From Candidatus Aenigmatarchaeota archaeon (GTDB lineage Archaea; Aenigmatarchaeota; Aenigmatarchaeia; GW2011-AR5), in NCBI GenBank assembly GCA_018304565.1, contig JAGVVX010000007.1, forward strand, positions 1 through 39,015: DNA of 39,015 nt. The letters are read 5' to 3'. The first letter of the stretch is position 1. Every line of letters starts with the position of its first letter. Below the pieces are notes generated by a model. The model did not search any database, had not been told where the DNA came from, and was given only the letters and a program-made list of their open reading frames with translations. The position numbers were made by a program, and so were the translations under genes. Below are positions 3,761 through 37,369 of this stretch, one piece after another.

Positions 3761-3810
3761 ACCCCGGAGAGCAAAGCTCTCCGGGGTAATACTTCGGGCT
3801 TTAGCCCGAA
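3761..3810 (+). repeat. Two tandem perfect hairpins in the tRNA-Arg trailer
   Basis: ACCCCGGAGAGC-AAA-GCTCTCCGGGGT (12 bp, 3761-3787) and TTCGGGC-TTTA-GCCCGAA (3793-3810). Same CGGAGAxC...GxTCTCCG style as the hairpins in tRNA introns elsewhere in the window. Confidence 0.7.
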
Positions 3811-7780: not shown

Positions 7781-7903
7781 GGAATACCACCTGTCTTTAG
7801 GCGGCGGTATTATTATTCGTGGTATTCCGGTATAAAAGAATCCACATGTGTTATTAGTGGTATTTCACAGAAATACCACCATCTTCAGGCCGTGGATTCT
7901 TTT
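7781..7903. promoter_or_regulatory. Palindromic module pair in the pheS/glyS divergent intergenic region (R1 copy 7781-7833, R2 copy 7834-7903)
   Basis: R1: GGAATACCAC-N28-GTGGTATTCC followed by GGTAT. R2: nested AAAAGAATCCAC...GTGGTATTTC-ACA-GAAATACCAC...GTGGATTCTTTT. Read on the minus strand, R1 is followed by TCGTATAAATAT (TATA-like) about 45 nt before the pheS ATG. Confidence 0.6.
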
Positions 7904-10535: not shown

Positions 10536-10643
10536 ACTCAGGATACCACCTATCTTTAGATGCTGGAGGAAACCATTAAACCATCAGTAATTACAAGTGG
10601 TTTCCTGGTATCACAACCATCGTTTGAAAACGATGGTTGTGAT
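10536..10643 (-). promoter_or_regulatory. Upstream cassette A (inverted copy of cassette B at 35305-35406), directly abutting the CBS/HPF-like gene start
   Basis: Read toward the gene it has three parts. First, the 16-bp palindrome ATCACAACCATCGTTT/AAACGATGGTTGTGAT plus ACCAGGAAACCAC. Then a ~35-nt variable AT-rich (TATA-like) spacer. Then ATCTAAAGATAGGTGGTATCCTGAGT-ATG. The proximal 26 nt is identical to cassette B, and the distal ~47 nt is near-identical. Confidence 0.7.
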
Positions 10644-11000: not shown

Positions 11001-11609
11001 CTAAGGCTTCATTCTCTGGATGATGTAGTAAGTTGCATCGCCTTCGTTGTCAACAACGGCCCAGAGCATACGTGCGCGGATGTTATGAGCCAGCCTTACG
11101 GAACGCGAAAGTTCCTGGAAAGACAGTGTGTAGTCCTCAGGCACGCAAAACACTATCCATTTTGTGTGCTCTTTTGCACTCTTTGGGCCTTTCTTAAGCT
11201 GTACACCACGTTCATAGACACGGAAATCGCAGCCAAACTTGAAGCCAGTCCGTACTAGAAGCCCGCGCTCTCTTAGGTCTTCGTAAACACGATAGCGCTC
11301 GGGAAACCTCCTATCCAGGTTCCGCGCATGGTCATATAGTTCCTGGAAATTTATCTGTTTCCCGCTTGAAAACACTCTTATTCTTCCTCGCTTAAGAAGC
11401 AGGCAGGCTTCGACCATAGCGAGTTCAAGCCTGTCGCCTATCTGCTTGCCATAGTAACCAGGCTCATAAATCTTTTCAGACCCTTTCCATGCAACAACCT
11501 TGCTTTCTTCCAGCTGCGTGTCTATAATTTCCTTTATTTGTTCAGGTTCTACATAGTCCGGTTTATCTTCCCATTCTTCTAATTCCTTATTCTTTTTACT
11601 CATAATCAT
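11001..11609 (-). CDS. endA: tRNA-splicing endonuclease (EndA), short single-unit form
   Basis: 202 aa. C-terminal catalytic-domain signature RTGFKFGCDFRVYE, then EHTKWIVFCV and RSVRLAHNIR segments typical of archaeal EndA. Confidence 0.85.
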   Translation of the reverse strand: MIMSKKNKELEEWEDKPDYVEPEQIKEIIDTQLEESKVVAWKGSEKIYEPGYYGKQIGDRLELAMVEACLLLKRGRIRVFSSGKQINFQELYDHARNLDRRFPERYRVYEDLRERGLLVRTGFKFGCDFRVYERGVQLKKGPKSAKEHTKWIVFCVPEDYTLSFQELSRSVRLAHNIRARMLWAVVDNEGDATYYIIQRMKP

Positions 11610-12566: not shown

Positions 12567-12704
12567 GGAATACCACCAGCCTTTAGACGGTGATATTATT
12601 AGTGGTATTCCGGTATGCTCAGAAAGCAAAGCTTTCTGGCATGCCAAAATTGCTCTGCAATTTTGAGCATAAGAGGATCCACAAATAAGATTTGTGGATC
12701 CTCT
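12567..12704. promoter_or_regulatory. Palindromic module array in the hydrolase/trmY divergent intergenic region
   Basis: R1 copy at 12567-12616 (GGAATACCAC-N25-GTGGTATTCC-GGTAT, ~85% identical to 7781-7833). Hairpin ATGCTCAGAAAGC-AAA-GCTTTCTGGCAT at 12615-12642. Hairpin CAAAATTGC-TCT-GCAATTTTG at 12645-12665. 16-bp perfect palindrome AAGAGGATCCACAAAT-AAG-ATTTGTGGATCCTCTT at 12670-12704. Confidence 0.65.
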
Positions 12705-12732
12705 TTATAAGCATCTGCGTTATTTTTTAATT

Positions 12733-13361: not shown

Positions 13362-13610
13362 TTATTTGGATTCTGAGCATCCGTTATTTCGGCACACACA
13401 TGTTAACACAATATCTGGATTATCCGGGCCACATTTAGCTATAGAAGCATATGCAACAGTCGTACATCTATCACAAAACTCTACGCAGTCCGCATCTCTG
13501 TTGCAAGAAAGTGTATTTGTTAAATTCTTTTGCGATCCAGTAGAAAGCGCATAAATTAAAACAACAACTAAGATAGTTATTGCAACAATCACTCCAGTTT
13601 GTTTCTTCAT
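13362..13610 (-). CDS. Small membrane-anchored or secreted cysteine-rich protein (82 aa, 8 Cys)
   Basis: N-terminal hydrophobic helix (GVIVAITILVVVLIYAL) followed by a Cys-rich ~55-aa domain. No family recognised. Confidence 0.5.
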   Translation of the reverse strand: MKKQTGVIVAITILVVVLIYALSTGSQKNLTNTLSCNRDADCVEFCDRCTTVAYASIAKCGPDNPDIVLTCVCRNNGCSESK

Positions 13611-13669
13611 TGTTACTATCTTACAAAACAGAAATATATATATATGTATACAAGATCGAAGTATTGTTT

Positions 13670-14392
13670 ATGATTACTCAAAATACACCTCTTCTTAAAA
13701 TAAATGAAGATATTGCAGAGTTCGTTGGCGCTTTAATTGGAGACGGATATATTTACACTAACAAAAACAAATATATCATAGGATTTACTGGAAATCCTAT
13801 CACAGATAAAGAATATTATGAATATCTAAGAAGATTGATAAATATAGCTTGGAAAAAAGAAGTCAAAATAAAATTAAGAGGGAGAGGCATTAGAATTGTT
13901 ATTAATTCTAAGAATATAGTTAATTTTTTGATAAATGAAATACAAATTAAACACGGAATCAATAAAAGCGAATCTGTAGTAATACCAGAAGTCATGACCA
14001 AAGACTGGAGTTTGACTAAATTAGTAATAAGAGGTATTGTTGATACAGATGGCTCTGTTTTTGTTTCTAAAAAGCCCGGCATAGATATGTACCCTTCTAT
14101 AGAAATTACAACATCGAGCCCTGAATTAGCTTTTCAACTAAGGAATATCCTATTAAGCCGTGGTTTTAGAGTTGCGAAAATATGGAGTTATAAATCTAAA
14201 TTAAGTAAAAGAATTTCTTATAAAGTTCCTCTAAACGGACTTGAAAATGTTGGTAAATGGTTAAAAGAAATAGGCTTTTCCAATCCTTACAAACTGAAAA
14301 GAGCAAAAGAAATATGGGATGGGAGGGATTTGAACCCTCGACATTCCCGACGTAACACAAAAGTGTTATGCTCCACGGTTCCTGCTCAGTAG
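13670..14392 (+). CDS. Free-standing double-motif LAGLIDADG homing endonuclease-like protein
   Basis: Two LAGLIDADG motifs (FVGALIGDGYI and VIRGIVDTDGSV). Start taken at the internal ATG (MITQNTPLL). The last ~25 codons read antisense through the 3' part of the convergent tRNA gene. Confidence 0.85.
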   Translation: MITQNTPLLKINEDIAEFVGALIGDGYIYTNKNKYIIGFTGNPITDKEYYEYLRRLINIAWKKEVKIKLRGRGIRIVINSKNIVNFLINEIQIKHGINKSESVVIPEVMTKDWSLTKLVIRGIVDTDGSVFVSKKPGIDMYPSIEITTSSPELAFQLRNILLSRGFRVAKIWSYKSKLSKRISYKVPLNGLENVGKWLKEIGFSNPYKLKRAKEIWDGRDLNPRHSRRNTKVLCSTVPAQ

Positions 14393-14447
14393 GACTTCAG
14401 CTTCACATCTTTCGATCGTGTGCTCTCCCATGCTGAGCTACCATCCC
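14315..14447 (-). tRNA. Intron-containing tRNA, class II-like (long variable arm); tentative Ser(CGA) with ~50-nt intron at 37/38
   Basis: Minus strand: acceptor GGGATGG/CCATCCC+A. D arm GCTC-AGCATGGGA-GAGC. T arm GAGGG-TTCAAAT-CCCTC. The best anticodon arm is ACACG-AT-CGA-A|intron|T-TGTGT followed by a 15-nt variable arm. The isotype is uncertain: the position-26 spacing is awkward, and discriminator A is unusual for Ser. Confidence 0.65.
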
Positions 14448-26215: not shown

Positions 26216-26296
26216 CCTTTCTTTTCTAAAAGAAAGGCCTTTGTATGCTCAAAGAACCAAAGGTTCTTTGGCATCTCAGAAACCTTTGGTTTCTGA
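26216..26296. repeat. Three tandem perfect hairpins immediately upstream of the pilus-operon start codon
   Basis: CCTTTCTTTT-CT-AAAAGAAAGG (26216-26237). ATGC(T)CAAAGAACC-AAA-GGTTCTTTGGCAT (26245-26274). TCAGAAACC-TTT-GGTTTCTGA (26276-26296). Confidence 0.7.
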
Positions 26297-26445
26297 AGAT
26301 TTCCCAAAGAAAATTCAAAGACCTTCCATTTTTTCTTGATATCTTAACTTAATTATTATAATCTCAGACGGTATATAAAGATTGTCAAAATTGTATAAAA
26401 TCAAAGAAATTGACTTTTTATTTTCTTTTGCTTTTAGTAAAAGAC

Positions 26446-26976
26446 ATGACTAAGCGGTATTCTGAACGCGATGTACACAGAGCATTGGCTGGATACCGTG
26501 CTCACCACGATTCTATAGTACACAGGTTAATTCCATTGATTCCGCGCATCATGGATACGGTTGCAACCTTCAATCAGGATTATATGATTGCTACACAAAT
26601 TGACAGGGTCACGCAAGGAGATGTAGAAGCAGGAACTCTTACTGAAAAAGGCTTTATGTGCACAGAATTTTTCGCATATGCGGGCGGTAAAAAACCTAAA
26701 GATAAACCTATGCATGAGGTTTCCCTTGGCATTTTGTTAGATGTAGAGAGGAGGCCATTTGTTGCTGTTTCATCCGCAAAAGAGGCGGCAGAATATCTTA
26801 TGTCCGAGTGCCAGTTAGAGAGGAATTTAGAAGCAGGAAAAATGTTAAAATCTCCGCATACATGGTTTTTATTGTACGAAGAAGCTGAAGTTTTGGAAGG
26901 TGTAGATTTATCTGCTTTTGGTGTTTCAGAAACAGGCACGACAACTTCAATAATCAAACAAAGGAAAAAGCTGTAA
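26446..26976 (+). CDS. Hypothetical protein (~176 aa)
   Basis: Long ORF, start moved to MTKRYSE. GGTATATAAAG TATA-like box ~70 nt upstream. No family recognised. Less K-rich than its neighbours. Confidence 0.5.
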   Translation: MTKRYSERDVHRALAGYRAHHDSIVHRLIPLIPRIMDTVATFNQDYMIATQIDRVTQGDVEAGTLTEKGFMCTEFFAYAGGKKPKDKPMHEVSLGILLDVERRPFVAVSSAKEAAEYLMSECQLERNLEAGKMLKSPHTWFLLYEEAEVLEGVDLSAFGVSETGTTTSIIKQRKKL

Positions 26977-26981
26977 AAGAA

Positions 26982-27380
26982 TTAGCGTTCAATCCTTCCA
27001 AATCTAGAAAACCTTATCCCTAATTTCCCTGCTGGTTCGATGACGGTAGTGCCTTCATGTTCGTAGGTTTGAAGCCAACCCTCTCTTTTTGCTTCACCGA
27101 CATACCGTTTTTGTCTTTCAGGCAATTCATTTAGCGGCACGCCAGCAAACCACCCTATTTTCCCGGCGATAAGGGTGAAATATGGCATCAGCGCCTCTGA
27201 TCCTGCAGAAGGCAAACCAAGGCCAAAGCAACTCAACCTAGCTATTTGACCGTCTGCCAAAGGCGTGCCATCCAAGTTATACATCCTGTCAAGTTCTCTC
27301 GTAGCATCGCTTCTGTAAACTGCACTAAAACCGTTTTTCGCTTTATCCAATGGAATACAGTCTACTGGCATTTGTCTCAC
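26982..27380 (-). CDS. Hypothetical protein (132 aa)
   Basis: ORF only. G/R/L-rich, locally higher GC. No family recognised. Confidence 0.45.
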   Translation of the reverse strand: MRQMPVDCIPLDKAKNGFSAVYRSDATRELDRMYNLDGTPLADGQIARLSCFGLGLPSAGSEALMPYFTLIAGKIGWFAGVPLNELPERQKRYVGEAKREGWLQTYEHEGTTVIEPAGKLGIRFSRFGRIER

Positions 27381-29033: not shown

Positions 29034-29201
29034 CTCAAATTCCTCCTCTACAAGTCATTTTCTACATCTTGCACAAACTGTGCATGGAAGTATACGACCT
29101 AAAAGCTTAAAAATGTTACTTTTCCGCAAGTTTTAAGAGTGTAGGAACCATTCTACAAGCATGGCAAGCCACATGGAGACGGGACGAAATATACAGCCGC
29201 C

Positions 29202-30393: not shown

Positions 30394-30649
30394 GGGCCGG
30401 TAGCTTAGCCTGGTAAGAGGAGAAACTACATTCCTGCGGAGAACGAAGTTCTCCGAGGTCTCAGAGAAGCTCCGCTTCTCTGCAGATCTCCCTCTACCCT
30501 CTTCCTAGAAAGAAGTAAGGTTGGAAGGAGAATAAGATATCTCTTCTGAGGAAAGAGCACCTGTCTTATACGACCTGTTCGGATAATAAACTGAATCCAA
30601 ACAGAACTAGGCTAGCAGGGGGTCGTGAGTTCAAATCTCATCCGGCCCA
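30394..30649 (+). tRNA. tRNA-Ile(TAT) with two introns: ~140 nt in the D arm (about 30418-30557, position 22/23-24/25) and ~43 nt at 37/38 (about 30571-30613)
   Basis: Acceptor GGGCCGG/CCGGCCC+A. D arm GCTT-AGCCTGGT-AAG|...|C. Position 26 is A. Anticodon arm CCTGT-CTTATA|...|A-GCAGG. Variable region GGGTC. T arm GTGAG-TTCAAAT-CTCAT. Spliced length is 73 nt. The canonical intron folds into a 10-bp hairpin. Confidence 0.65.
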
Positions 30650-30655
30650 TCCTTC

Positions 30656-30781
30656 CCTTTCTTTCAGAAAGAAAGGTCTGGATCAACCCCAAAGAAACCA
30701 TGTAATATCTTGGGAGAAGCTGCTTCTCCGAGATCCCGGAATCCAAAGGATTTCGGGAATTCCAAAAAGCCGCGCTTTTTG
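30656..30781. repeat. Four tandem short perfect hairpins in the tRNA-Ile trailer
   Basis: CCTTTCTTT-CAG-AAAGAAAGG (30656-30676). GGAGAAG-CTG-CTTCTCC (30713-30729). CCCGGAATCC-AAA-GGATTTCGGG (30735-30757). CAAAAAGC-CGC-GCTTTTTG (30763-30781). Confidence 0.7.
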
Positions 30782-31565: not shown

Positions 31566-32153
31566 ATGAAAATAGTGCTGAAAATAGGCGGATCGATTTC
31601 AATAAATGAAAACGGACCAGTTGAAGCTTACTTCAGAAAGCTTTTGCCAGTGATAAGACAAATAAAAACAAGGCACCGGCTGATTTTATGGAAAGAAGAA
31701 ATGGAATGGATAGCCATTGAGCTGCTGAGAGTGAATGTAAGGTTTCTTTCCTCGCTGCTCAATATGAAACCCCTGTACAGGTTGGAAGAAATAAGCACAA
31801 AAACAACCGGCGTTATAGGCGGCATAAAGCCCGGCAGGAGCACTGATGCAAATGCAGCTTACTGCGCGGCGAAGATAAAGGCTGATTTGTTCGTAAAACT
31901 TACAAACGTTGACGGAATTTACGATAAAGATCCGCGTAAACACAAGGACGCCAGGAAACTAGAAACGCTAAGCTTTGCTGACCTGAAGAAATTTTCACAA
32001 TCCGGGAAGCCCGGAAGTTACGGCATACTTGACAGGCTTGCAATAGAAACAATAACCAAGCACAAGATAAAGACAGTTATTATGAACGGAAAGGACCCGA
32101 AAAACATACTCAAACTAATCAACGGAGAAAAGATAGGAACTCTGATACATTAA
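31566..32153 (+). CDS. Amino-acid-kinase family protein, UMP kinase (PyrH)-like but lacking the Gly-rich loop segment
   Basis: KIGGS N-terminal motif, GGIKPGRSTDANAAYCAAKIKADLFVKLTNVDGIYDKDP core typical of archaeal PyrH. About 28 aa shorter than typical, and no VVGGG motif after residue 45. Confidence 0.6.
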   Translation: MKIVLKIGGSISINENGPVEAYFRKLLPVIRQIKTRHRLILWKEEMEWIAIELLRVNVRFLSSLLNMKPLYRLEEISTKTTGVIGGIKPGRSTDANAAYCAAKIKADLFVKLTNVDGIYDKDPRKHKDARKLETLSFADLKKFSQSGKPGSYGILDRLAIETITKHKIKTVIMNGKDPKNILKLINGEKIGTLIH

Positions 32154-32194: not shown

Positions 32195-32285
32195 GGGCTT
32201 GTAGTCTAGCGGCTATGACTTTTTATTAGTAGAATACGCTACCCTCACATGGTAGAGATCCCCAGTTCGAATCTGGGCAAGCCCA
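32195..32285 (+). tRNA. tRNA-Val(CAC) with ~18-nt non-canonical intron between D stem and anticodon stem (about 32220-32237, position 25/26)
   Basis: Acceptor GGGCTTG/CAAGCCC+A. D arm GTCT-AGCGGCTA-TGAC. Then TTTTTATTAGTAGAATAC. Then G-CTACC-CTCACAT-GGTAG-AGATC-CCCAG-TTCGAAT-CTGGG. Confidence 0.75.
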
Positions 32286-32944
32286 TACATTTTCAAATAC
32301 TTTCTTTTTGAAAGAGCTTGTTTTATCCGTTTTTTATTTTTGAATCCTATATTTACAATATAATTGTGAATATCTTGTTTTCTTTGCAAGGATATGCGCC
32401 ATATAACCCTTCTTTTATAATCACGTTTTTTATTGGTAAAAGAATATATTGTAGGAGAAAATCCTAACATTTTTAATAGAGACTTTATTTCGTAAGCAAA
32501 AATTTTGTTTGTGCAGTTCCACGATAAAATCAGATAATAACTATTACCACTTTCACGCCAATATACAGTCCCATCTGTATCAATTAAACCACGTAAAAAG
32601 TTTTTACCACATATTTTACTTGAAAATACAAATTTAGGTACTCTAAGTTTATCTAACTTTGGGCCTTTTGGAAAGCCAGTCTTTAATAAAAGATTGTAAG
32701 TATTTTTACAAGCTATTCTTAATTCAATGACATTATAAGGATCGCCTCTTTTTACAATACGAAAAATATGGAAATCAAAAACTTTCGCATATAACTTCTT
32801 GACGTAATTGAAATATTGTTTCTCGGTGCTCGATGTTCCGTATCCGACTTCATTTGGTTTAGATGCAAGCCAACCATCACCTGCATGAATACCACATAAT
32901 TCAGCATAGTTTCCTATTAAGCTTCTATCGACTAATCTAACCAT
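32213..32944 (-). CDS. Free-standing double-motif LAGLIDADG homing endonuclease-like protein (paralog of 13670..14392)
   Basis: Motifs ELCGIHAGDGWL and FLRGLIDTDGTV. The last ~24 codons read antisense through the tRNA-Val body (stop in the D-loop). Confidence 0.85.
   Translation of the reverse strand: MVRLVDRSLIGNYAELCGIHAGDGWLASKPNEVGYGTSSTEKQYFNYVKKLYAKVFDFHIFRIVKRGDPYNVIELRIACKNTYNLLLKTGFPKGPKLDKLRVPKFVFSSKICGKNFLRGLIDTDGTVYWRESGNSYYLILSWNCTNKIFAYEIKSLLKMLGFSPTIYSFTNKKRDYKRRVIWRISLQRKQDIHNYIVNIGFKNKKRIKQALSKRKYLKMYGLAQIRTGDLYHVRVAYSTNKKS
32263..32287 (+). repeat. Direct repeat copy 1 (inside tRNA-Val: T-stem to 2 nt past the discriminator)
   Basis: CAGTTCGAATCTGGGCAAGCCCATA, identical to 33018-33042. 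Confidence 0.85.
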
Positions 32945-33017: not shown

Positions 33018-33042
33018 CAGTTCGAATCTGGGCAAGCCCATA
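33018..33042 (+). repeat. Direct repeat copy 2: orphan tRNA-Val 3' end fragment
   Basis: CAGTTCGAATCTGGGCAAGCCCATA, 755 bp downstream of copy 1. The two copies bracket the LAGLIDADG gene and its upstream region. Confidence 0.85.
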
Positions 33043-37273: not shown

Positions 37274-37369
37274 AATCCACCACAAAAATGTGGTGGTATT
37301 TCTTTGAAATACCACAGATCATATATGTGGATTTGTTTATACAGGCAACCATTGTTTAAAAACAACGGT
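37274..37369. promoter_or_regulatory. R2-type nested palindrome plus degenerate ACCATTGTT/AACAACGGT hairpin in the IDI/hydrolase divergent region
   Basis: AATCCAC-N12-GTGGTATTTC-TTT-GAAATACCAC-N11-GTGGATT (37274-37333), the same architecture as 7834-7903. Overlapping CCACCACA-AAAA-TGTGGTGG. ACCATTGTT-TAAA-AACAACGGT at 37348-37369. Confidence 0.65.

Follow-up and report, generated by a model that had tools for sequence, protein, structure and literature searches.

A tRNA-Ile(UAU) gene of Candidatus Aenigmatarchaeota with a predicted long D-loop intron that varies among relatives and carries inserted hairpins

The interrupted tRNA-Ile(UAU) gene

This report concerns a tRNA gene at positions 30394-30649 (plus strand, 256 nt) of a 39,015-nt stretch of DNA from a Candidatus Aenigmatarchaeota archaeon (contig JAGVVX010000007.1), the whole of which is called the window here. 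We regard it as a functional tRNA-Ile(UAU) gene of this DPANN lineage with two protein-spliced introns, one at the canonical position 37/38 and one in the D loop at position 20/21, and put the probability of this reading at about 85%. The gene is real and almost certainly functional, and it merits annotation.

The acceptor stem, the 5' strand of the D stem, the anticodon arm and the T arm are canonical; for the acceptor, the T arm and the D-stem 5' strand this had been claimed in an earlier inspection of the bare letters (the sequence-only reading) and is confirmed by reading the sequence. The order along the locus is GGGCCGG-UA-GCUU-AGCCUGGU, about 140 nt, AGAGC-A-CCUGU-CUUAUA, 43 nt, and A-GCAGG-GGGUC-GUGAG-UUCAAAU-CUCAU-CCGGCCC-A. 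Exon 1 (30394-30414, tRNA positions 1-20; all parts of the gene lie on the plus strand) comprises the acceptor strand GGGCCGG, U8 and A9, the D-stem strand GCUU and the D-loop segment AGCCUGGU. Exon 2 (30554-30570, positions 21-37) runs from A21 through the D-stem strand GAGC, A26 and CCUGU to the loop nucleotides C, U, UAU and A. Exon 3 (30614-30649, positions 38-73) holds A38, GCAGG, the variable loop GGGUC, GUGAG-UUCAAAU-CUCAU, CCGGCCC and the discriminator A, and no CCA is encoded at its 3' end.

The raw locus was reported neither by ARAGORN (default settings; introns up to 300 nt) nor by Rfam (gathering thresholds; E-value modes), which found one and two of the other tRNA genes of the window, respectively. 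The 256-nt stretch folds much better than shuffled sequence (z = -5.8). From the spliced product ARAGORN returns a canonical cloverleaf, tRNA-Ile(tat), with the anticodon loop C32 U33 U34 A35 U36 A37 A38, in which UAU stands in the context of a reader of ANN codons (U36, A37). The two-intron tRNA-Ile(TAT) gene proposed by the sequence-only reading is thus borne out by this call and by the orthologues that were found; isoleucine as the amino acid is a prediction from the anticodon and the ARAGORN call.

The canonical intron (30571-30613, 43 nt, position 37/38) was identified by ARAGORN after removal of the D-loop intron and by a scan of every junction pair for a strict bulge-helix-bulge (BHB) motif, defined as a 4-bp helix and two 3-nt bulges with the cuts between bulge nucleotides 2 and 3. 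The scan recovers the junctions 30570|30571 and 30613|30614 in a strict hBHBh' structure: the 5-bp anticodon stem is the outer helix, C32U33U34A35 pairs with UAGG in a central helix of 4 out of 4 bp, and the cuts fall in the bulges U36 A37|C and C U|A38. A single G-C pair opens the inner helix, which resumes after a 2x2 mismatch with CUGUU/AACAG. Site and length had been given correctly before; the 10-bp hairpin described within this intron turned out to be two stretches of 5 and 4 bp broken by a 1x1 mismatch.

Orthologous loci and the host lineage

The gene adjoining the tRNA encodes a 296-aa protein with PDDEXK_19 and HTH domains, and its sequence recurs identically on ten groundwater-metagenome contigs from different samples. 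The tRNA locus is 100% identical on all ten, the only indel nearby (2 nt, at 30701-30702 in L003) lying outside the gene, and ten identical contigs carry no covariation information. The closest relative of the 296-aa protein in the genome collection (96% aa identity) is found on L011, a contig of a groundwater metagenome-assembled genome (MAG) of Candidatus Aenigmatarchaeota that aligns to the window at 86-98% nucleotide identity in blocks that together cover about 19 kb; a second relative, L012, is 89% identical. The match of the 296-aa gene together with the identity of the L011 contig points to a DPANN archaeon as host.

We collected 14 further loci with the same tRNA, making 15 with the window. 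Six (L011-L016) were reached by synteny with homologues of the 296-aa protein and carry the tRNA at the corresponding place. A metagenome scan with the pattern AGAGCACCTGTCTTATAYGAC added eleven, of which four duplicate other loci; a twelfth match was a chance hit in coding DNA. The identity of exon 2 in all 15 loci follows from the construction of the search pattern; the adjoining exon sequence is conserved too, and exon 1 is identical or nearly so in L011, L012, L015 and L023.

The D-loop intron measures 139 nt in the window, 85 nt in L012, 169 nt in L011, 100 nt in L015, 49 nt in L023 and 117 nt in L021, and these sequences are unalignable. It is absent from nine of the 14 further loci (L013, L014, L016, L017, L018, L019, L020, L022 and L025). 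Two of these, L014 and L016, possess the canonical intron only and are called tRNA-Ile(tat) by ARAGORN; in L025 the D arm reads GCTTAGCCTGGTAGAGC, which is exactly the arm predicted for the spliced product, and in L018 it reads GCTTAGGCTGGTAGAGC, the predicted arm save for one D-loop substitution. Introns at the canonical site 37/38 range from 30 to about 150 nt among the orthologues.

The exons of the window and L015 are identical except at 3 of 74 positions, one change converting a G-U into an A-U pair, whereas the introns cannot be aligned and the neighbouring protein is 59% identical. Near-invariant exons next to unalignable introns are an argument for purifying selection that is confined to the exons.

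Several orthologues are interrupted at additional sites. A T-loop intron of about 50 nt is seen in the tRNA-Ile(UAU) orthologue of L013 (5650-6010, reverse strand as fetched), an extra intron of about 31 nt in the variable region of L018, and one of about 22 nt at the border of T stem and T loop in the orthologue of L020/L028 (located in L020). L021 holds three introns, in the D loop (117 nt), at the canonical site (30 nt) and in the T loop (about 190 nt), so that its gene extends over 397 nt. The canonical intron of L025, about 150 nt long, is full of perfect hairpins. With the D loop, the anticodon loop, the variable region or the T arm occupied depending on the lineage, the 15-locus set represents a compact natural experiment in intron gain and loss.

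Position and junction structure of the D-loop intron

The D-loop intron occupies 30415-30553 (139 nt), with boundaries placed to within 1 nt; 30416-30554 is an equivalent description, as an A is repeated at both ends. Two observations locate the insert in the D loop. The D-stem 3' strand is GAGC in all orthologues, with or without insert, and directly precedes A26 and CCUGU; and the 5' junction in L011 reads GGCAAUGGGG, which is incompatible with an exon ending in AAG. For the exact cuts we took the rule of the canonical intron of the same gene, a cut between bulge nucleotides 2 and 3, and applied it to the D-loop site, which gives 30414|30415 (after U20) and 30553|30554 (before A21). Removal of the 139 nt leaves the D arm GCUUAGCCUGGUAGAGC, identical to that of the intron-less L025. 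The predicted mature tRNA has 74 nt and the D arm GCUU-AGCCUGGUA-GAGC, in which the stem measures 4 bp and the loop 9 nt, and ARAGORN assigns it as tRNA-Ile(tat).

No junction that gives a sensible D arm forms a strict BHB; in this gene the strict motif is passed by the canonical intron only. The motif to which the sequence-only reading had looked at the D-arm junctions is found in a relaxed form. Unconstrained folds of all six intron-bearing D-arm precursors share a common architecture with the D stem GCUU/GAGC, A14 and G15 unpaired, CCU(G) paired with (N)RGG of the intron, and three A's between this central helix and the D stem on the 3' side; on the 5' side comes a 3-nt bulge and then the inner helix closing the intron. 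AAA with GAGC directly after it does not vary among the six intron-bearing genes, and the 5' bulge G19-N20-N stands in the same register in the window, L012, L011, L015 and L023. In the nomenclature of PMC5829648 the junction is a relaxed HBh'-type motif, in which a proper bulge holds one site while the bulge at the other is disrupted.

In the window the 5' strand of the central helix H (C16 C17 U17a G18, 30409-30412) pairs with GAGG at 30548-30551, after which the 3-nt loop AAA (30552-30554) contains the 3' splice site. The inner helix h' joins AGAGGAGA (30416-30423) to UCUCUUCU (30540-30547), both strands being seen in the minimum-free-energy fold and in the junction alignment. The 3' strand of the central helix is CAGG in L011 and CGGG in L015, with 4 bp each, GAGG with 3 bp and a G-G mismatch in the window, L012 and L023, and CAG, slipped by one position, in L021. 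In the junction alignment 80% of the cells are paired in register compared to 40-56% if the partner strand is slid by 1-3 columns, and the covariation score was reached by none of 500 shuffles. All eight inner-helix pairs have changes on both sides among the five distinct sequences; the window, for example, has A-U/G-C/A-U/G-U/G-C where L011 has A-U/U-A/G-U/G-U/G-C.

Some points weigh against our reading. The central helix of the window and L012 has three Watson-Crick pairs and a G18-G mismatch, where L011 and L015 have 4 bp. Around the 3' site the fold is a 2x3 internal loop instead of a clean bulge, so an enzyme that strictly requires a BHB would not cut there. In the minimum-free-energy fold of L011 the inner-helix 3' strand finds its partner in AUAGG, an intron segment close by, and not in the 5' end of the intron, which makes part of the covariation in this relative ambiguous; the central helix of L021 fits only in a register shifted by one, and the covariation as a whole comes from five distinct sequences only. 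The sequence does not decide between a 74-nt and a 75-nt product, and expression and splicing of the locus are themselves deduced from sequence. Finally, another AUA decoder or an additional, intron-less copy of the gene may possibly exist elsewhere in the genome.

Alternative explanations

The 75-nt product would result from a D-loop intron of 138 nt, for instance with the cuts 30415|30416 and 30553|30554, and would have the D loop AGCCUGGUAA. In its favor, the minimum-free-energy fold of the window pairs G19 with U30547 and bulges U20-A-A, shifting the 5' bulge by one nucleotide; the central helix thereby grows to five positions, however, which breaks the 4-bp spacing between the cuts, and CCUG/CAGG in L011 and CCUG/CGGG in L015 form clean 4-bp helices in the other register. 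The 75-nt product passes ARAGORN as well, with 4 bp in the D stem, and D loops with nucleotides at 20a and 20b are common in archaeal tRNAs; yet the intron-less L025 (GCUUAGCCUGGUAGAGC) and L018 (GCUUAGGCUGGUAGAGC) have a D loop of nine and not ten nucleotides. We consider the 138-nt intron unlikely, though it is the one serious rival. The mature RNA would tell the models apart, as cuts at 20/21 predict the junction read GGUAGAGC, the 75-nt product predicts GGUAAGAGC and the junction of the sequence-only reading predicts GGUAAGCACC.

The locus might also be a pseudogene, a tRNA-Ile inactivated by repetitive hairpin DNA in its D loop, with AUA read by another tRNA. The segment 30433-30486 is demonstrably a recently inserted dispersed repeat, but inserts occupy this site in six lineages, where the junction pairing is conserved and shows compensatory changes. 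The 5-nt direct repeat AAGAG at the two junctions (30415-19 and 30553-57) resembles a target-site duplication, yet it is peculiar to the window and absent from L011, L015, L021 and L023. Standard tRNA finders reject the locus and the comparison is limited to a 39-kb window of the genome; against this, the exons are almost invariant where the neighbouring protein is 59% identical and the intron unalignable, the locus is identical on ten contigs from different samples, and AUA is the commonest isoleucine codon. Inactivation is therefore very improbable.

Hardly credible is the junction of the sequence-only reading, a 140-nt intron at 30418-30557 that splits the D-stem 3' strand as AAG|C (24/25), for although its numbers total 73 nt, ARAGORN still gives tRNA-Ile(tat) and U13-A22 becomes a Watson-Crick pair, the D stem then has only 3 bp according to ARAGORN, the D loop is left without A21, GAGC precedes A26 in every orthologue, intron or not, GGCAAUG at the 5' junction of L011 would lead to a mismatched D stem, and no BHB-like pairing exists at 30417/30558. 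The AAGAG repeat at both junctions made that placement ambiguous and accounts for the error; GAGC is intact and not split, the intron spans the 139 nt given above, and the product has 74 and not 73 nt.

Other kinds of element in the D loop were considered as well. Nested or twin introns suggested by the BHB scan (e.g. 30415/30511 with 30505/30554) were rejected because their pairings are not conserved in the relatives. An intron-hosted box C/D small RNA was discarded since 30415-30553 contains no RUGAUGA C box, a single CUGA near the 3' end and no Rfam snoRNA hit. A group I or group II intron or a homing-endonuclease intron is unlikely given 139 nt without an open reading frame (ORF) and an interior that is unalignable among the relatives.

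Proposed splicing and the endonuclease

We propose that the 256-nt primary transcript carries two protein-spliced introns, and that both would be removed by the archaeal splicing endonuclease whose catalytic subunit gene lies at 11001-11609. The enzyme would cut the 43-nt intron at 37/38 through the strict BHB and the 139-nt intron at 20/21 through the relaxed HBh'-type motif. At the latter, the 5' site would fall within the 3-nt bulge G19 U20|A, between the central helix (CCUG with GAGG of the intron) and the inner helix (AGAGG.../...UCUUCU), and the 3' site within the 3-nt loop AA|A that joins the central helix to the D stem, with A14 and G15 unpaired opposite. Ligation would yield the 74-nt tRNA with the D arm GCUU-AGCCUGGUA-GAGC, to which CCA would be added later. 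The interior of the intron is unconstrained, and 54 nt of it represent a recently inserted two-hairpin module of a dispersed, otherwise intergenic family. A broad specificity of the enzyme is part of this proposal.

The gene at 11001-11609 (minus strand) encodes a catalytic-type EndA subunit of 202 aa with the Pfam domains tRNA_int_endo_N and tRNA_int_endo. Its best solved relative is the enzyme of M. jannaschii (1a79, alpha4; E = 2.5e-34), relative to which it has a lysine-rich insertion of six residues, LKKGPK, before the catalytic His. This insertion aligns without gaps to IPKKGKRS of the N. equitans alpha subunit (3iey_A). In the enzymes of N. equitans and ARMAN, Fujishima et al. described a lysine-rich insertion within the C-terminal domain and proposed that it aids the recognition of relaxed motifs (PMC3239211); Kaneta et al. 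named the insertion L3 and linked alpha4-type DPANN enzymes that bear it to heavily disrupted tRNA genes (PMC5829648). By alignment the LKKGPK loop probably corresponds to L3, and the window EndA is expected to be the enzyme for both introns. As the predicted EndA is encoded in the same window as the introns, the proposal is directly testable.

A further structural aspect concerns the precursor as a whole. The D-stem 5' strand and D loop, GCUUAGCCUGGU (30403-30414), are complementary to the 3' end of the canonical intron with three nucleotides of exon 3, ACUAGGCU|AGC (30602-30616). The duplex amounts to -14.9 kcal/mol and replaces the D stem when the whole precursor is folded to minimum energy. 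This complementarity is strong in L015 and L023 too, and most intron-less relatives have it in weak form only. Possibly it is a by-product of the CUUA shared by the D stem and the anticodon loop, or else it may influence the order of splicing.

Decoding of AUA

AUA is the commonest isoleucine codon in the ORFs of the window, with 514 of 875 isoleucine codons (59%) and 4.7% of all codons, and tRNA-Ile(UAU) is probably its decoder; we infer that it is the only one. The sequence-only reading had called a UAU anticodon uncommon in archaea. It is less unusual than was thought: tRNA-Ile(UAU) is a published AUA decoder that, in ARMAN, N. equitans and K. cryptofilum, takes the place of the agmatidine system (PMC3239211, PMC6000648). 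A comparison with Pfam revealed no TiaS-like ORF among 27 window ORFs, a negative that says little as it covers 39 kb only.

A gene that is missed by ARAGORN and Rfam would lead annotations of DPANN MAGs to list a missing tRNA wrongly. This is in agreement with Kaneta et al., who take incomplete DPANN tRNA sets as a sign of undetected disrupted genes (PMC5829648).

Hairpin modules in the intron and in spacers

The sequence-only reading described the D-arm intron as built largely of perfect hairpins of a type also seen in intergenic DNA. Both hairpins exist (30437-30455 with 8 bp and 30462-30482 with 9 bp), and their intergenic kinship is upheld by the copy and the recurring stems described below; together they form one module of 54 nt (30433-30486, plus strand) within the 139 nt, and "largely" is an overstatement. 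The module splits the 3' strand of an older hairpin, GGAGAAAC-UAC-GUUUCUCC; L012 retains this hairpin unbroken, and the module is missing from both L012 and L011. A copy with 89% identity lies at 9293-9339 of L013, in a spacer downstream of a thermosome gene, in a genome whose neighbour protein is 60% identical. Both stems differ between the two copies in a compensatory manner, CGGAGAAC/GTTCTCCG corresponding to CGAAGAAC/GTTCTTCG and CAGAGAAGC/GCTTCTCTG to CAGAGAAAC/GTTTCTCTG, and stay perfect. Lacking the module, the D-loop intron of L011 contains other perfect hairpins, about 80 nt in all, at a more 3' location, and one of these, CAGAAAGC-AAA-GCTTTCTG, matches with its flanks the intergenic window positions 12619-12648 and 26265-26300. 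The absence of the module from the closest relatives and its intergenic copy indicate that the hairpins are later passengers and not what makes the intron an intron.

Perfect hairpins with stems of at least 8 bp occur 21 times in the window compared to about 3.6 times in Markov-shuffled sequence, and 15 of the 21 are located in the non-coding 17%. Such stems are 5-10 times commoner than in shuffled sequence in the window, L011 and L013-L016. In spacers they form clusters of two or three (3761-3810, 12620-12705, 26216-26296, 30656-30781 and 37277-37315), as they do in L011 and L013-L016, and individual stems recur: GTGGTATTTC at 7857 and 37293, ACAACCATCGT at 10610 and 35309, CCTTTCTTT at 26216 and 30656. 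Across the 20-kb alignment of the window with L011, indels of whole hairpins are a main class of difference in the spacers. A second 54-nt two-hairpin module at 26245-26298 is absent from L011, and at 30671 and 30749 the two sequences have different hairpins at the same site. The window ORFs scanned contain no transposase domain, and neither a clear target-site duplication nor a conserved end motif was found at the modules; 26245 shows no more than a 2-nt AT repeat and 30433 no repeat. A search of the literature for hairpin repeats of DPANN archaea or for miniature inverted-repeat transposable elements (MITEs) in tRNA introns gave nothing relevant.

These observations suggest a tentative explanation of the intron length, to which we give somewhat less than an even chance: undescribed dispersed two-hairpin modules of about 54 nt would insert into non-coding DNA including tRNA introns, be gained, lost or swapped at a given site between strains that are 90-96% identical, and keep their stems perfect by compensatory changes across genomes whose proteins are about 60% identical. 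If the modules are truly mobile, for instance as single-stranded DNA in the manner of repetitive extragenic palindromic (REP) elements or of IS200/IS605, or if template switching generates and repairs them, spliced tRNA introns would serve as safe harbours for them, and the modules would explain why DPANN tRNA introns extend beyond the reported archaeal length range. They may represent a new class of archaeal repeat. The dispersed modules are the least explained part of this system and the part likeliest to repay further work. We also note T-rich palindromes directly 3' of tRNA genes, which may be two-way terminators.

Other features of the window

At 32195-32285 (plus strand) ARAGORN reports a tRNA-Leu(tag). 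Deleting 12-22 nt between the D arm and the anticodon stem mostly gives Val(cac), and the gene is more likely a tRNA-Val(CAC) with a non-canonical intron of about 19 nt at this place; L011 has compensatory changes in the CUACC/GGUAG anticodon stem of this candidate. The last 23 nt of the gene, CAGTTCGAATCTGGGCAAGCCCA, are repeated at 33018-33041, and the two copies bracket an insert of about 750 bp and 32% GC that contains a LAGLIDADG_3 ORF (32213-32944, minus strand). This ORF is absent from L004, L006 and L011, of which L011 keeps a short insert and the repeat. A second LAGLIDADG_3 ORF (270 aa, 13580-14392, plus strand) lies in a stretch of 35% GC, converges on the 3' end of a tRNA gene at 14315-14447 (minus strand) and overlaps it by about 78 nt. 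The latter gene bears an intron, has 58 extra nt and is probably tRNA-Phe(GAA); no duplicated tRNA end was found at 14315-14447. The arrangement common to the Val and Phe loci suggests that small homing-endonuclease elements have the tRNA gene 3' ends as their targets.

A tRNA-Asn(GUU)-like sequence extends from 14998 to about 14890 (minus strand), with a normal acceptor 5' strand, D arm and anticodon arm, and ends in the T loop. Its intron of about 50 nt at the canonical site holds the perfect hairpin GAAGAAC-GGA-GTTCTTC. The 3' strands of its T stem and acceptor stem were found nowhere in the window, and the sequence could be a remnant, one half of a split tRNA or a gene whose T loop holds a very long intron.

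Next to the tRNA, an amino-acid-kinase-family gene (31566-32153, plus strand) is without 60 nt that L011 possesses at window position 31691, and its product matches the Pfam profile in the C-terminal half only. The gene is probably an isopentenyl phosphate kinase and may be a damaged or variant copy. About 1 kb at 26410-27380 aligns with L011 in fragments, with gaps of about 0.75 kb in total; its ORFs (26410-26976, plus strand; 26982-27380, minus strand) have no Pfam matches. Further indels seen only in the window relative to L011 are located at 29121 (304 nt) and 37265 (113 nt).

Comparison with known systems

The sequence-only reading regarded an intron in the D arm as unusual, and this applies to its length only. 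Position 20/21 is a listed non-canonical site of archaeal tRNA introns, with quoted lengths of 11-129 nt (PMC4090602), and the two-intron layout has been published as well. The closest parallel is tRNA-Glu(UUC) of M. kandleri, which has an HBh' intron at 20b/21 in addition to a canonical intron, and for which the mature form was seen by RNA-seq and cleavage by the broad-specificity EndA in vitro (PMC5829648). The layout is the same, with a D-loop intron just before A21 and a canonical intron, and the D-loop junction is of the same relaxed type, with a clean bulge, a central and an inner helix, and the other site in a disrupted bulge. The differences concern the tRNA and the lineage (Glu in Euryarchaeota, Ile-UAU in DPANN) and the intron, which is far longer here (139 nt, and 49-169 nt among the relatives) and, unlike that of M. 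kandleri, is polymorphic in presence and has inserted hairpin modules. The enzymes differ too: the window EndA is a single alpha-type ORF with a Nanoarchaeum-type lysine-rich loop, whereas that of M. kandleri is a loop-less (alpha-beta)2 enzyme.

With regard to the tRNA itself, the nearest case is pre-tRNA-Ile(UAU) of ARMAN-2 (Ca. Micrarchaeum), whose canonical BHB intron is cleaved in vitro (PMC3239211). Both are DPANN tRNA-Ile(UAU) genes with a strict hBHBh' intron at 37/38, in organisms whose endonuclease has a lysine-rich insertion in the C-terminal domain. The ARMAN-2 gene possesses a single intron of 25 nt, while the window gene adds the long D-loop intron; and for ARMAN the absence of TiaS and tRNA-Ile(CAU) has been demonstrated, while the window gene is seen within 39 kb of its genome.

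Multi-intron tRNAs of Thermoproteales and other Crenarchaeota (PMC4090602) likewise include the site 20/21, vary among orthologues in the sites occupied and depend on BHB motifs, as here. Their introns mostly measure 12-25 nt (range 11-129 nt), a range that three of the relatives here exceed or approach. The mode of growth differs as well, with insertion of palindromic modules here and "intron transposition" of whole introns in Crenarchaeota (PMC4090602).

The hairpin modules resemble REP and bacterial interspersed mosaic elements (BIMEs), palindromic MITEs derived from IS200/IS605, and the selfish palindromic repeats that swell introns and spacers in the organelle genomes of green algae (PMC3184786, PMC2670323) in being short clustered palindromes of intergenic and intronic DNA, with strain-variable presence and with stems that recur at several loci. 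Unlike the REP/BIME and MITE systems, the stems of the window are very diverse and perfectly paired, and no transposase and no clear target-site duplication or end motif was found in the window. In summary, the combination of a D-loop intron with a canonical one and the DPANN tRNA-Ile(UAU) were already known, and the features of this gene's own are the size of its intron, the series of presence and absence among relatives, and the hairpin passengers.

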